A stretch of DNA of 64,000 nt from Eledone cirrhosa (GCA_964016885.1 OZ024743.1:202058001-202122000); one strand, 5' to 3'; positions 29,386 to 41,214 are shown, numbered from the stretch's first letter. Numbers and translations are program-made. Notes: generated from the letters alone by a model not told the origin.

Positions 29386-29833
29386 TTAATCTGTTATTTT
29401 AATAAATATATATATATATATATATATATATATATATATAAGTGTAAGTATGTATGTATACGTACATACATATTTGTATACAGACGTACAGTAGCATGCA
29501 TATATATATATATATATATATATATATATATATATATATATATATATATATATATATATATATATATATATATATATATATATATATACACACATATATA
29601 CACATGCATACAGCTACACATACATATATGCACGCATCAGTTTAGCCGACGTTTATTATAACTCCTGCTTTGTTCGTTTGTTTGTCAACAAATCGAACAG
29701 CCTGAATTTATGCCATACGGTGTTAAGGCAACCACGTCACCTTTTTGTTCAACACTGACACAGGAACGATGTACTAGTTTCAAGCTTGTTAGTATATACT
29801 TTCGAACGTTCAACTATCTGGCAGATGGGTAAA

Positions 29834-29874
29834 CGGTGCTGATGATAGCTAACAAGCTTGAAACTAGTACATAG
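29834..29874 (+). ncRNA. Type I hammerhead ribozyme
   Basis: cggtg ctgatga tagct(aaca)agctt gaaa ctag ta catag. Confidence 0.85.
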
Positions 29875-30349
29875 TTCCTGTGTCAGTGTTGAACAAAAAG
29901 GTGACGTGGTTGCCTTAACACCGTATGGCATAAATTCAGTCTGTTCGATTTGTTGACAAACAAACGAACAAAGCAGGCGTTATAATAAACGTCGGTTAAA
30001 CTGATGCGTGCATATATGTATGTGTACCTGTATGCATATGTGTATATATGTGTATATATATATATATATATATATATATATATATATATATATATATATA
30101 TATATATATGCATGCTACTGTACGTCTGTATACATATATGTATGTACGTATACATACATACTTACATTTAAGTAAGTGCCATACTAAGAGTGAGAAATGA
30201 AATTTCGTTTTCATTTTTTTTCAACTTATCGTTTTCGGTATGCCTGACCGATTTAACTCACTCAATATGCAAATTAGGCTGCTCAGCCGTTAATTTTCAT
30301 AAGGAAAGTATATACTTTCGAACGTTCAACTATCTGGCAGATGGGTAAA

Positions 30350-30390
30350 CGGTGCTGATGATAGCTAACAAGCTTGAAACTAGTACATCG
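30350..30390 (+). ncRNA. Type I hammerhead ribozyme
   Basis: cggtg ctgatga tagct(aaca)agctt gaaa ctag ta catcg. Confidence 0.88.
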
Positions 30391-30762
30391 TTCCTGTGTC
30401 AGTGTTGAACAAAAAGGTGACGTGGTTGCCTTAACACCGTATGGCATAAATTCAGGCTGTTCGATTTGTTGACAAACAAACGAACAAAGCAGGCGTTATA
30501 ATAAACGTCGGCTAAACTGATGCGTGCATATATGTATGTGTACCTGTATGCATATGTGTATATATGTGTATATATATATATATATATATGTGCATGCTAC
30601 TGTACGTCTGTATACATATATGTATGTACGTATACATACATACTTACATTTAAGTAAGCGCCATACTAAGAGTGAGAAATGAAATTTCGTTTTCATTTTT
30701 TTTTCAACTTATATATATATATATATATATATATATATATATATATATATATATATATATAT

Positions 30763-32950
30763 AAGTGGTTACACAACAGTTAGTTCACCATACCGAGAAC
30801 AATTGTTTCACCTTAGCGGATCCTCAGCTCTTAATGGACATGGTTATACGGAACAGGAAGGACAACCGTATGAACGCGCATGCGCAGAAACCGGTCACTT
30901 CACACAGGCATTACTAAAATGCGTGCGAGAGGTGTAAGGGAGATAACTGCGAAAGTCCGAACAGTTTTTAGTTGGTAAGAAAAAATATTGATGTTGTAAC
31001 AATAATTCATTGAATCTGGAGCTTTGTAGTTATTCAATAGGTGTTTCGAGACGTGTGGACAAGGTGTGAAAAATTCATATCTCGTGTTTAGGCAATCACT
31101 ATTGCATACTTTCTTTAGAATATTTATTCGTTCGTCAATACACAGTCTACACGACGGATTTCCCCTTGCGTATGGCTGGGACTTAGGGATGGCTTTCCAT
31201 TGAATGGAGTAGTCTATACTTGATTCCTTGAGGGACTATACGTGGCTCGCTAGTTTTGTGGATGAACGTCTGTCCAGGTACCTAAAGGTCGACTGATGGT
31301 TCAGGAAACGTTCCCTAAATCAGCCTCCGCCATGCCCACATAGGATTTGACATCCTGTGGTTGGTTTGGTCGGTTAGAAGTGACCACAGCTTCATAAATT
31401 ACAGCTGGTGTGTTGCATTGCTGTTGAAGGGGGAAAACGTCGGGCTTACGGCAAGAACACCCTGGTTGGGTGTTGCTCCTAGGGCTGCTGGTGATGTGGC
31501 TTTCATGTTCTTAGCGCAGGCGTATCCTAGTTTTACTTTGTGTCGGTTAAAGATGGAGCGGTATTTATGACCTACGGGAAAGTGTCTATCTAAGAGGGCT
31601 AAAAATTATTTGCCTACATTGGTTTTAACGTTGAGTTGGAAGGGAGGAGAGAACCAGATAGTTTGTCTATTGTTGCGCTTTCTTTTCTTATTGCTGTTGT
31701 TGACAGTGGGAGAGTAAGTGATAGGTTATGAGAAGCCGCTGTTAGCTAACACCGTGTTATAGTAGGGTGCCGCCCTGTCAAAGATAGTCTTATTAGAGGA
31801 GAGGTTTGAGATACTAGTGCTGATATTATTTACGAAGTTTCTAAAAGCAGTGGGAGGGTGGCATGAGTCCTTGTGAATGTAATTGAGTTTTTCGTTTAGC
31901 TTATGGAAGGGTCAGTGGATGTGGGTGCGAAGGTCTAAATTAATGTCTAAGAAATCTACGCTAGAGAGGTTGGTGGCTACTGTTATCCTAAGTCCTAACT
32001 CATTGAAGGTAGAAGCTAATTCTTTTTTAAACCGGTCGAGGTCGTGACCACTTTTATGGCTCGATAAGTTCAGTCCATTCTCGTGGTATATTCCCGTGTG
32101 GAAGTCCGGGAATCTAACAAGTAATATGTCTAAAATAAATAGGAGGCCAACCAAATCACATACGTCAGCACTGTGAAACGATCCCGTGGAGACGTCGAAG
32201 AGGTCTGAAGAGGAGGGTTTTCTCCGTCGTTGAAGAGGAGGGTTTTCCGGCAGTGAGCGATGATTTCCCTGTCTAAACCATCAACGGTGGTCTAAGTGGT
32301 AGCGAAGTCCAACACTTTGTTTAACAGGGTCTCTGAAATCGACGGGTAAAAATCGACAATGTCAAACTGTGTGAACTTTGCTTTTTGGATATTAAGGAGT
32401 TAAACCAATTAATTACGGAGTCGCTGTTCTCCAAGTGGGGCAGATTGGACTTGGTCCTAATGGTCTTAACTATGTTTCTAAGTATGGCCTTACTGACTAG
32501 TCCCATATCTGTGCGTGCCGGGTTTATTAGTCTACATGTGGGGTTAGAAGTAAAGTATACCTTGTGAACTTTCAGGGTGAGGAACGCCTCCCGCTTAGCT
32601 AGAGATTGTAGCTTCTTATCTACCTTAATGGCTTCTGTATTAATGTCGTGGTAGGCCATAGGGTTAGCTTTCTTATATTTGGAAGTAATAGCGTTATGGG
32701 CCAGGTGGCGGAAAGTGGTGTTGTCGACTTCGTAAATAATAGGTTTGTCGGAAAGAACGAAGGTGTTATTAGAAGAACTAAATTTCTTAATATCATTTCT
32801 TAGTTTAGTTTGAAAGGTGTTAGTGTGGCTGCGAAAGGAAATGTTAGCGACTAAGTCAAGAAGGTCCGCCTCGAAAGGAGCAAGTTCAGTTACCTTAGGA
32901 GGGTAGGCTCTCGATTTCAGGTTGAAGGTGTTATTCGTGCCTGTAATTTT
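30763..32950 (-). mobile_element. Naiad-type Penelope-like element, 5'-truncated and frameshifted
   Basis: AFLTLKVHK..NPTCRLINPARTDMGLVSK (32321-32659); VDFLDINLDL (31912-32154); CSCR..PLQQQC and YVGMAE GIY-YIG motifs; HHR at the 3' end. Confidence 0.88.
30795..30830 (-). ncRNA. Minimal hammerhead at Naiad 3' end
   Basis: GAG-CUGAGGA-UCC(GCUAA)GGU-GAAA-CAAUUG-UU-CUC. Confidence 0.8.
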
Positions 32951-33058
32951 GCCGTTAAAAGCGATTCTTTGCTTTTCTTTAAGCGATTCTTTAATCTGTT
33001 ATTTTAATAAATATATATATATAAAATCAAAAGATGGTTAAAAGAGTTCCATGTATTT

Positions 33059-33119
33059 TATTATGCGCATTTCAAAAACAAATATCATCATGGGATGATA
33101 TTTGCGTTCTCATCAGATA
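33059..33119 (-). ncRNA. Type I hammerhead, same family as 18109-18175
   Basis: UAU-CUGAUGA-..CAAAUAUCAUC(CCAU)GAUGAUAUUUG..-GAAA-UGCGCA-UA-AUA. Confidence 0.8.
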
Positions 33120-39300: not shown

Positions 39301-39606
39301 TCACTAACACTCTCATCCCATAAATTCCTTTCCCTTCGCTTTTAACACCATTTTTTAATAACATCAACAATTTTTGGGACTCCTTCACTATCTCGTTGAT
39401 TTAACCTCATTTAAACCCCTATCTTTCTCTTGCCCATTGTATTATTTTCATTCAAAGCATAAATTTACATTCCTCCCCTCCACTCCTAGCATAAAGTTAT
39501 ATTACTGTAATTCTATCAACTTGACCTCTAACTCTATAGGTCAATTCAAAACCGGTTCCCAAACAGATCTTTTAAATTTATACTTTGTTTCTTTCAATAA
39601 ACATAC

Positions 39607-39743
39607 TTCATCATTTCTGAAGATGGCATGTATAGGTGAAGGTATGTATATCTCCTCTGATAATTTGTAATATTTTTTTACATAGATCTTTAACATGATA
39701 TACATACCAACATATATCCCAGGATCGATCGTAAAATGATGAA
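39607..39743 (+). ncRNA. Hammerhead with ~100-nt stem II domain (3' core mutated to GGAU)
   Basis: ttcatcattt ctgaaga ... ggat cgatcg ta aaatgatgaa; 10-bp stem I. Confidence 0.65.
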
Positions 39744-40074
39744 CTTTTCAATATATTGTTTTTATTAATTTATCATATATATATATGTATGTATGTATGT
39801 ATATATATATATATATATATATATATATATATATATATATATATATATATATAATTAAGTTAAAGTGTACATCTACATATGTATACGGAAGTACTAGTAT
39901 GCATATAAATACACACATGTATACATATGTACATGTACCGAGTTTTTCACTAGACACTTTACAGTGAGTGTCCAGCTAGTCTGTATGTAAACAAACAGAC
40001 GAACCGGGTTTTAAAGTCATACGAGTTTTCAAGGAAACACACTTCCTCCATTCTCCAGAGAGCCAGACAGGAAC

Positions 40075-40113
40075 ATTGGACTAGTTTCGATGTTATTACA
40101 TCTCATCAGCAAT
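40075..40113 (-). ncRNA. Type I hammerhead ribozyme (GUC site)
   Basis: AUUG-CUGAUGA-GAUGU(AAUA)ACAUC-GAAA-CUAG-UC-CAAU. Confidence 0.9.
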
Positions 40114-40818
40114 AATTACCTATCTTCCGGCTTCTCTGGAGAATTGTACAAGCACATATCGTTATATGCTTTTTCTATGAAAATCAGAAGTGGGCAGACT
40201 AATTTGCATAGAACGTGAGTCATTGTACGCGCAGGTTCAGCGGAAACGATAAAAACAAATAACGAAACGAAATTAAATTTCGTTTCGCTTCTAACTCACT
40301 TTTGTATGACTGACGCTTAAACAATTAAGTTAAAGTGTACATCTACATATGTATACGGAAGTACTAGTATGCATATAAATACACACATGTATACATATGT
40401 ACATGTACCGAGTTTTTCACTAGACACTTTAGAGTGAGTGTCCAGCTAGTCTGTATGTAAACAAACATACGAACCGGGTTTTAAAGTCATACACTCACTG
40501 TAAAGTGTCTAGTGAAAAACTCGGTACATGTACATATGTATACATGTGTGTATTTATATGCATACTAGTACTTCCGTATACATATGTAGATGTACACTTT
40601 AACTTAATTGTTTAAGCGTCAGTCATACAAAAGTGAGTTAGAAGCGAAACGAAATTTAATTTCGTTTCGTTATTTGTTTTTATCGTTTCCGCTGAACCTG
40701 CGCGTACAATGACTCACGTTCTATGCAAATTAGTCTGCCCACTACTGATTTTCATAGAAAAAGCATATAACGATATGTGCTTTTACAATTCTCCAGAGAA
40801 GCCGGAAGATAGGTAATT

Positions 40819-40857
40819 ATTGCTGATGAGATGTAATAACATCGAAACTAGTCCAAT
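40819..40857 (+). ncRNA. Type I hammerhead ribozyme (GUC site)
   Basis: attg ctgatga gatgt(aata)acatc gaaa ctag tc caat. Confidence 0.9.
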
Positions 40858-41214
40858 GTTCCTGTCTGGCTCTCTGGAGAATGGAGGAAGTGTGTTTCCT
40901 TGAAAACTCGTATGACTTTAAAACCCGGTTCGTCTGTTTGTTTACATACAGACTAGCTGGACACTCACTGTAAAGTGTCTAGTGAAAAACTCGGTACATG
41001 TACATATGTATACCTGTGTGTATTTATATGCATACTAGTACTTCCGTATACATATGTAGATGTACACTTTAACTTAATTGTTTAAGCGTTAGTCATACAA
41101 AAGTGAGTTAGAAGCGAAACGAAATTTAATTTCGTTTCGTTGTTTGTTTATATATATATATATATATATATATATATATATATATATATATATATATATA
41201 TATATATATATATG

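Follow-up and report, generated by a model that had tools for sequence, protein, structure and literature searches.

The tandem hammerhead repeat of newt satellite 2 reportedly has a layout of octamer plus proximal sequence element (PSE), and its ovarian monomer is said to start about 47 nt before the cleavage site. Its small nuclear RNA (snRNA) promoter is used by RNA polymerase II (Pol II) (PMC2220036, citing Coats 1994), and the Sm-alpha hammerhead repeats of Schistosoma, which resemble short interspersed elements (SINEs), are described as having an RNA polymerase III (Pol III) promoter inside (PMC6765202). Retrozymes without long terminal repeats (non-LTR retrozymes) have been described from a mollusc, the mussel, with lengths of 350-390 nt (PMC7229834). 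A 2020 review holds that retrozymes seem to be without promoters or a conserved motif pointing to a helper (PMC7761336), a preprint derives them from Penelope terminal repeats (bioRxiv 10.64898/2026.07.22.740005), and inverted truncated copies, a one-ended tail and (TA)n targets have been described for Penelope-like elements (PMC8557442). Here we analysed hammerhead-bearing tandem arrays of three subfamilies, A, B and C, in a stretch of 64,000 nt from the octopus Eledone cirrhosa (the window; C4:202,058,001-202,122,000 of the 3.0-Gb assembly to which all genome-wide counts refer), with emphasis on a promoter-like block upstream of their ribozymes. Promoter, start site, cleavage and folds are all predicted from sequence. 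On these predictions the block is very probably a working promoter, and it is likely that these parasitic repeats drive their own transcription.

The repeats resemble metazoan non-LTR retrozymes in being short, non-coding tandems of low GC content with a type I hammerhead, a self-paired circle and Penelope-like elements alongside (PMC7229834). They differ in that the units here have 422-516 nt (GC 33-37%), and the main text of that report names no promoter. Measured from cleavage site to cleavage site, the monomer has 422 nt in A, 516 nt in B and 470 nt in C, which agrees with the lengths given for three diverged arrays in an initial annotation of the window; the C length was taken from a tandem locus (L012), because the C insertion in the window has no two tandem cores. 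Identity between A and B is about 80% over 315 nt, and C shares about 66% with A or B over parts. All three sit within (TA)n runs, and no reading frame of at least 120 aa overlaps the B and C arrays. In contrast to retrozymes as characterized in PMC7761336, the repeats here conserve two fixed end sites as well as a promoter-like block. Newt satellite 2 is likewise a hammerhead tandem; it has an internal Pol II promoter of snRNA type (PMC2220036), as is predicted here. However, it is one family of a vertebrate, whereas here we have at least six lineages of an invertebrate, in which the octamer directly adjoins the PSE, a TATA box is present and U3 is the best match. The Schistosoma repeats resemble them in the internal promoter before the hammerhead, and single copies cannot pass the promoter on, a dimer or more being needed; they differ in being reported as transcribed by Pol III, whereas the promoter here would be of the upstream PSE/TATA kind (PMC6765202). 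Penelope-like elements are similar in their inverted truncated copy beside a tandem, extension at one end, (TA)n setting and type I hammerhead (PMC8557442, bioRxiv 10.64898/2026.07.22.740005). The repeats here differ in having no open reading frame, and the preprint, in its main text, covers vertebrates, insects and coral but no mollusc, with no occurrence of the word promoter. We found no report of an octopus hammerhead repeat or its promoter, although subscription papers, Repbase/Dfam and the supplement of PMC7229834 could still hold one, and no host-matched promoter kept across many invertebrate lineages was found in print; PMC10886601 and PMC5680766 contributed nothing further. The initial annotation had called such replicons possibly undescribed in molluscs; this is too broad for retrozymes as such, which are known from mussel, and stands for the description of a promoter. 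What is new is a conserved, host-matched candidate promoter module, together with fixed end sites, in an abundant retrozyme superfamily.

The block consists of an octamer (position 0), a YCAS motif at +16 and a TATA-like box at +41 to +43. In the window the octamer ATGCAAAT precedes the hammerhead core by 80, 88 or 100 nt (100 nt in C) at all six of its positions within the repeats (Table 1), as had been proposed; a second proposed block, CATA-R-AAG-Y-ATA, was matched after five of the six octamers. The octamer count in the window alone is barely above chance (11 against 5.7 +/- 2.5 expected, with 3 of 100 shuffles reaching 11). Genome-wide, exact hammerhead cores of the A/B/C kind number 39,905 (reversed-pattern control 0), octamer-to-core linkages 32,718 (control 1) and copies of the 19-mer octamer block ATGCAAATTRGKCTRCYCA 31,122 (control 0), and arrays in the genome-wide core listing reach up to about 30 units. 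A sample of 1.464 Mb, made up of the window, its flanks and 12 further regions, holds 23 hammerhead loci; the octamer, with at most one mismatch, precedes the core at 19 of them, and three of the four misses are truncated upstream. Scanning this sample for the hammerhead only, we recovered families E, F and G with the same octamer 79-99 nt before the core, and family D without it. Across B, C, E, F and G, all of which were found through the ribozyme, identity is 0.92 over columns -1 to +10, where 10 of 12 columns are invariant, compared to 0.28-0.40 in the flanks and 0.64 for the five bases at +16 (the PSE core), and spacings such as octamer to TATA stay within 2 bp. The candidate block is far better conserved than its flanks across the five lineages; the initial annotation had named the opposite outcome as a refutation, and this did not come about.

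Searching the genome with the pattern ATGCAAATGAG followed by TATATA at +42/43, which leaves the +16 position free, gave 2,174 matches against 210. Among 30 loci fetched from these matches, YYAS was found at +16 in 27 (by eye; mostly family E) and an exact CTGANGA 87-104 nt downstream in 17, and none held tandem E or G monomers. Variants E2, F2, F3, G1-3 and H were recovered in this way. Family D (L141, G000 C3:150,074,500-150,076,330) is a 310-nt hammerhead tandem in head-to-head arrangement; it carries AATTT, CCAGT and TATA at the U1/U2 spacing and at the same distance to the ribozyme as in the other families. It also has TTACTTCCCTT about 256 nt before its predicted start, which may be a coincidence because this 11-mer overlaps helix I. 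An old dispersed family (L287, L288, L291 and L294, around position 1500) has ATGCAAATTAG with TATA at +47, the U6 spacing, and a decayed hammerhead about 105 nt further on in two of the four loci; it is possibly a retrozyme lineage of Pol III type. The octamer also occurs in another repeat family (window 43048-43055 and L075); a hammerhead-like motif lies about 120 bp away at 42927, on the other strand.

The host promoters compared with the block were those of U1, U2, U4, U5, U6, U6atac, U11, U12, U4atac, U3, MRP, RNase P, tRNA-Sec and SRP genes (L031-L093, L274-L285 and L308-L327), with near-identical tandem copies merged to one. Left out of the profiles were 8 of 15 U6 loci (the L067 group of six, unrelated upstream of TATA, with L074 and L075) and 5 of 6 U6atac loci, all without a recognisable promoter and taken as pseudogenes or disrupted. 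In every one of the 14 distinct U1/U2/U4/U5 promoters, YCAGY lies at -55 to -58 and AATTA near -89, 32-34 bp before YCAG; a TATA-like stretch follows about 25-27 bp past YCAGY (strict TATA pattern in 10 of 14), and these genes have the 3' box AAAATCAGACT. U12 has AATTA at -89 and YCAGY at -56 in the same manner. The seven promoter-bearing U6, U6atac, MRP and tRNA-Sec genes all have ATG(C/G)(A/T)AATKAG at -76 to -79 and TATA at -30, the octamer-to-TATA distance being 46-48 in the five Pol III genes measured. A TATA-like box at -30 is thus seen in both classes, and a distal element TTACCTCCCTT at about -257 to -288, found in 11 of 20 host promoters, is also common to both. The octamer is not present in the SRP (3), RNase P, U11 (2), U12 and U4atac genes; U11 (L308, L309) and U4atac (L327) have atypical layouts that do not fit the PSE profile at -56, and the single RNase P RNA gene (L082) shows TCAGT 32 bp before TATA, two distal elements and a T9 run. 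The U3 genes (L311-L316) have an octamer-like ATGTAAAAT at -73/-74, TCA at -56, AATGTA, CATAGAAA, TATA at -30/-31 and a distal element at about -285. They show no obvious 3' box, in five of the six the first 40 nt downstream are free of T4 runs (by eye), and L311 has an internal T6; for these reasons Pol II is the likelier polymerase of U3 in this animal. In plants the spacing from PSE to TATA sets the polymerase, whereas in vertebrates the presence of TATA does (PMC9652321). Genes for POU-domain proteins and SNAPC3 were found in this genome.

The PSE-to-TATA spacing of the repeats equals that of U1/U2/U4/U5 (25-27 bp), and they share their octamer with the Pol III genes, although it stands 5 bp nearer to TATA, with an octamer-to-TATA distance of 41-43 in A, B, C and E-H. 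A profile built from U1/U2/U4/U5 only gave P <= 0.008 for the site at octamer +16 of A, B, E, F, G and H; in the octamer-less D it ranked the matching site first of 664. The comparison of the second block with the proximal element of the species' own snRNA genes, which the initial annotation had called for, thus came out as a match in A, B and six further variants. At the place equivalent to AATTA we read, by eye, GATTAA in A, ATTTAA in B and AATTTC in D. On a profile of the proximal octamer (ATGCAAATKAG) from five host Pol III genes, A, B and C scored 16-20 bits, compared to 12.9-18.6 for the host genes when left out one at a time, and 12 of 13 variants scored 8.8-20.2 bits, D being the exception; both tRNA-Sec genes carry the element out of sample. 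When a six-lineage repeat profile was run against 30 host promoters, U3b (18.7, at -73), U3a (17.0, at -74) and U6a (16.5) came first and all others stayed at or below 7.3. Gapless comparison likewise gave U3 as the top match for A, B, C and G1, but U3 did not lead for D, E, H or the majority of F variants; we used only the ranks of these host-promoter comparisons, because retrozyme copies in the background inflate P, and z was derived from mononucleotide shuffles over 30 comparisons. By this measure the whole candidate block best matches host U3 promoters, at the same offsets, and C, which is unlike the U1/U2-type profile, matches U3 and the octamer element. Host U3 and repeats share an octamer-like element, TCA, AATGTA, CATAGAAA and TATA, and both are without a 3' box; they differ in that U3 has ATGTAAAAT instead of ATGCAAAT and possesses a distal element. 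The octamer had been taken for the snRNA distal element. We discarded this identification on the strength of the host gene positions, -76 to -79 in Pol III genes and -73/-74 in U3, and of the distal element itself, which in this host is TTACCTCCCTT.

The cores in the window read CUGA(U/C)GA...GAAAC-UA-GU(A/C), and every full unit can be drawn as a type I hammerhead whose parts are helix I, helix II, a palindromic helix III and a UU bulge facing a UANA-type loop. In an alignment of five lineages, which has only five rows and a structure placed by hand, 92% of cells pair compared to 33-40% for slid controls, and double-sided changes occur in 9 of 15 hammerhead pairs. The covarying stems described in the initial annotation are upheld by this, except that its stem II, UAGCU/AGCUA, is true of only two of the five A/B cores in the window; the other three have UAGCU/AGCUU, in which a U-U pair forms the base of stem II, similar to axolotl HHR_Amex2 (PMC7229834). 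No Rfam hammerhead family reached its gathering score in the window, the best match within 29.6-31.0 kb being HH9 (18.5 bits, E 0.2). Circular monomers of A-C, folded from real tandems, are predicted to be 66-70% paired, with folding z of -9.6 to -16 against 20 shuffles each. Other hammerhead-like motifs lie in the window at 17973, 18115, 30827, 33116, 35717, 42669 and 42927.

If, as in host genes, transcription begins 30 nt past TATA, the predicted start precedes the core by 8-29 nt in the 10 variants whose core can be recognised (28-29 nt in C); its distance to the cleavage site is then 39 nt in A, 47 nt in B and 59 nt in C. In A, B and C the next octamer is preceded at 46-53 nt by a T5-T8 run, a signal that Pol III would heed and Pol II would not, and the C2 monomer has T5 runs within its body. 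A host-type 3' box is absent in six monomers, where the best scores are 0.8-5.7 bits compared to 6.6-21.6 in host genes and a random median of 3.9. Contigs from runs X1-X3, one sample of unspecified kind, cover 29 of 29 bins without joints and speak neither for nor against expression.

Table 1. Features of the A, B and C arrays, positions counted from the first letter of the window; promoter elements, starts and cleavage sites are predictions.
Feature	Position	Strand	Remark
Subfamily A array	12317..13595	-	3.0 units of 422-425 nt, flanked by (TA)n
A octamers	13548, 13126, 12701	-	
A cores	13468, 13046, 12621	-	predicted start 39 nt before cleavage
B insertion, inverted arm	29439..29792	-	5'-truncated; 3' end into (TA)n at upstream end site
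B insertion, forward arm	29791..30712	+	about 1.8 units of 516 nt; end in (TA)n past T8 run
Hammerhead core, first B copy	29839..29869	+	promoter removed by inversion junction
Octamer element (B)	30267..30277	+	ATGCAAATTAG; like -77 element of host U6/U6atac/MRP/tRNA-Sec
PSE-like block (B)	30283..30294	+	TCAGCCGTTAAT; TATA 26 bp on, as in host U1/U2/U4/U5
TATA-like box (B)	30309..30314	+	predicted start ~30339 (from TATA +30), 47 nt before cleavage
Type I hammerhead core (B)	30355..30385	+	predicted cleavage after GUA at 30385
3' end module (B)	30640..30712	+	upstream end ~30651, GAAATGAAATTTCGTTTTC hairpin, T8 run, downstream end ~30712
C insertion, inverted arm	39853..40492	-	640 nt; octamer 40209-40199, core 40109-40079
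C insertion, forward arm	40491..41149	+	about 1.4 units of 470 nt
Octamer element (C)	40723..40733	+	ATGCAAATTAG
Degenerate PSE position (CCACT...) and CATATAAC box (C)	40739..40771	+	predicted start ~40795; U1/U2 profile weak, U3 best
Type I hammerhead core (C)	40823..40853	+	predicted cleavage after GUC at 40853
3' end module (C)	41076..41149	+	upstream end ~41080-41085, hairpin, downstream end ~41149, then (TA)n

In addition to these arrays, an A-type head-to-head relic at 11372-11797 adjoins a long (TA)n run. The window also contains a long interspersed element (LINE) at 23044-27936, with a first frame of 473 aa and an open frame of 1,150 aa for endonuclease, reverse transcriptase and zinc finger (Pfam PF03372, PF00078, PF13966), and a tRNA-Phe-like gene or SINE head at 386-458 on the minus strand (Rfam RF00005, 64 bits).

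The 3' ends of the insertions are strongly concentrated. For C arms, 16 of 26 end at monomer positions 292-301 and 8 of 26 at 222-233; for A-type arms (at least 84% identity over at least 100 nt, some being B copies), 14 of 24 end at 264-277 and 10 of 24 at 210-220. Together these two sites, which make up 5-6% of the circle, take in all 24 A-type arms and 24 of the 26 C arms; where an alignment enters (TA)n, the end position is uncertain by a few bases. The 5' ends are scattered. The arm runs into TA repeats in 24 of 26 and 19 of 24 cases, respectively, and head-to-head pairs have one site per arm in 8 of 9 C and 3 of 5 A-type pairs. Relative to the promoter-like block the end sites lie about 40 and 95-110 nt before the octamer, the downstream one directly after the T run. 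A further common block described in the initial annotation is partly confirmed: TATCGTTT is found about 40 nt before all six window octamers, and AAACAAAC is on the sense strand only in B, since A and C read GTTTGTTT at that place, for which reason we rejected it as a common sense-strand block. The TTTCGTTT..TATCGTTT block sits at the insertion end sites and marks 3' insertion ends rather than the promoter.

Broken Penelope-like fragments are present in the window at 31912-33809, 36838-38848, 43797-44438 and 46660-48613. One matches proteins of about 700 aa, motifs resembling reverse transcriptase and GIY-YIG were seen by eye in P0001/P0002, and the Pfam RVT_1 match is weak; another, judged Penelope-like by eye only, had 150 of 150 scored matches. 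Pfam names none of the seven Penelope-like fragments. Hammerhead-like motifs beside 12 Penelope-like loci of one family lack the octamer, in a check limited to octamer and PSE.

Outside this genome the same architecture was found in 0 viral contigs, and the same geometry in 0 of 101 metagenome loci (21 of 64 parts searched; 52 loci with good stems). Three metagenomic hammerhead families (L328, L333, L340, L365, L368, L374 and relatives) carry ATGCAAAT with GAGATCTC 19-24 bp on, about 85-101 nt before the core; this pair is possibly the promoter module of another host.

Taken together, we consider it probable that the arrays are self-promoted retrozymes, transcribed by Pol II and copied back by a Penelope-like element. 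A POU factor and SNAPc would bind the block, and Pol II would start about 30 nt past TATA, at the 5' edge of helix I, with the core 8-29 nt further on. Without a 3' box, Pol II would pass the T5-T8 run and the promoter of the next unit, and two successive hammerheads would free a monomer containing the promoter sequence, perhaps released as a dimer because stem III (ACUAGU) is palindromic. A host ligase would close the monomer into a self-paired circle. The Penelope-like reverse transcriptase/endonuclease would then nick (TA)n and prime at the two fixed T-rich sites, about 56-70 nt apart, one per target strand, and reverse transcription round the circle would give head-to-head tandem arms; such twin priming on a circle we infer from the end positions. 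Only insertions of at least two units would regenerate a promoter-bearing circle, so that the promoter would be held under selection. Since whole units with their promoter are copied in arrays of up to about 30, the template must contain the promoter region. As to the mode of transcription, Pol II with read-through is the one we favour with some reserve; the missing 3' box makes read-through into multimers the likeliest mode.

Several observations weigh against this reading. The proximal octamer marks Pol III genes in this host (7 of 7, versus 0 of 14 U1/U2/U4/U5 promoters at -70 to -80), every A, B and C unit ends in a T5-T8 run, and the assignment of U3 to Pol II is itself inferred. C does not fit the PSE profile of U1/U2 (P 0.2 at -9.4 bits; rank 29 of 984 for the composite score), the B site ranks only 4 of 1076 within its own monomer, and the host distal element TTACCTCCCTT is absent from A, B, B2, C and C2, with a one-mismatch copy in D. 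For E2, F2, F3, G1-3 and H only the PSE score is non-circular, because the search pattern fixed octamer and TATA, and the lineages are not independent samples because they share ancestry. The folding z-scores of A and B are boosted by (TA)n hairpins, two of five A-type head-to-head pairs share one site on both arms, and no autonomous Penelope-like partner with shared ends was found among the 12 loci of one family.

The strength of the octamer on the host Pol III profile and its presence out of sample in both tRNA-Sec genes would also suit recruitment of Pol III by a U6-type block, with transcripts that lack the promoter, usually ending at the T5-T8 run, and occasional read-through into multimers. 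Pol III use is reported for the schistosome repeats (PMC6765202), U6a ranks third among host promoters, the downstream end site directly follows the T run, and the decayed family with TATA at +47 retains hammerhead relics in two of four loci. However, the octamer-to-TATA distance of the repeats is half a helical turn off that of the five host genes, Pol III spacing scores lower in all 13 variants (by 0.8-12 bits), and arrays of about 30 units would need read-through of T4-T8 runs, with T5 runs even inside the body of C2. We therefore regard Pol III as unlikely. More improbable still is a promoter relic, left over from a Penelope terminal repeat or a captured host gene, with present expression coming from host read-through. 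The review cited above argues for read-through and against promoters (PMC7761336), about 40,000 copies imply that many must lie in introns, and C has a degenerate PSE, D no octamer, and the distal element is absent; but a relic should decay like its flanks, whereas this block is as invariant as the catalytic core while flanks fall to 28-40%, its spacing is held within 2 bp, and D keeps a U1/U2-like layout of its own at equal distance from the ribozyme.

A last alternative is that the block is kept for RNA reasons, as a hairpin of the circle or for recognition by the reverse transcriptase, its likeness to a promoter being incidental. In A, B, C and G the octamer indeed pairs with the CATA-R-AAG-Y-ATA block in a predicted hairpin of -8.4 to -14.3 kcal/mol, a TATA-region hairpin is seen in B, C, E and G, and helix I reaches upstream of the predicted transcription start. 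The octamer arm is invariant and only its pairing partner varies between lineages, which argues for a constraint on primary sequence, and in F and H the octamer is kept although its pairing is weak or different. Moreover, the host match extends to sequence, orientation and spacing, the end sites lie elsewhere, and none of 52 octamer-bearing hammerheads of other organisms has YYAS at +16 or TATA at +41 to +43. An RNA role as the whole explanation is thus very improbable, slightly more so than the relic; rather, the block seems to be shaped both as a DNA promoter and as part of a self-paired circle.

For the self-promoted Pol II reading, the analysis gives a testable answer to the question of constitutive retrozyme transcription, with a start site predicted to within a few bases, named elements and two putative priming sites for a Penelope-like enzyme. 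It also yields a first sketch of the snRNA promoter grammar of this animal, with a proximal octamer in Pol III genes and TATA in both classes; provided that the host is assigned correctly, this would be of use in building U6/U3 expression tools for cephalopods. An octopus is suggested by the richness in (TA)n and by the only named protein relative found, which is from Octopus bimaculoides. One could tentatively go further, and with some doubt, to propose that animal retrozymes in general are self-promoted and have captured host promoters of the snRNA type. Here this would have happened repeatedly, A-C and E-H having a U3-like octamer-PSE-TATA module, D a U1/U2-like one and the decayed family a U6-spaced one. 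If this were true, the newt promoter would be the rule and would explain the constitutive abundance of the circles. The two fixed end sites, if correctly interpreted, would define priming by a Penelope enzyme on a circle, and about 30,000 optimal octamer-PSE sites would constitute a large sink of POU/SNAPc, or a dispersed source of transcription driven by them, in this genome.

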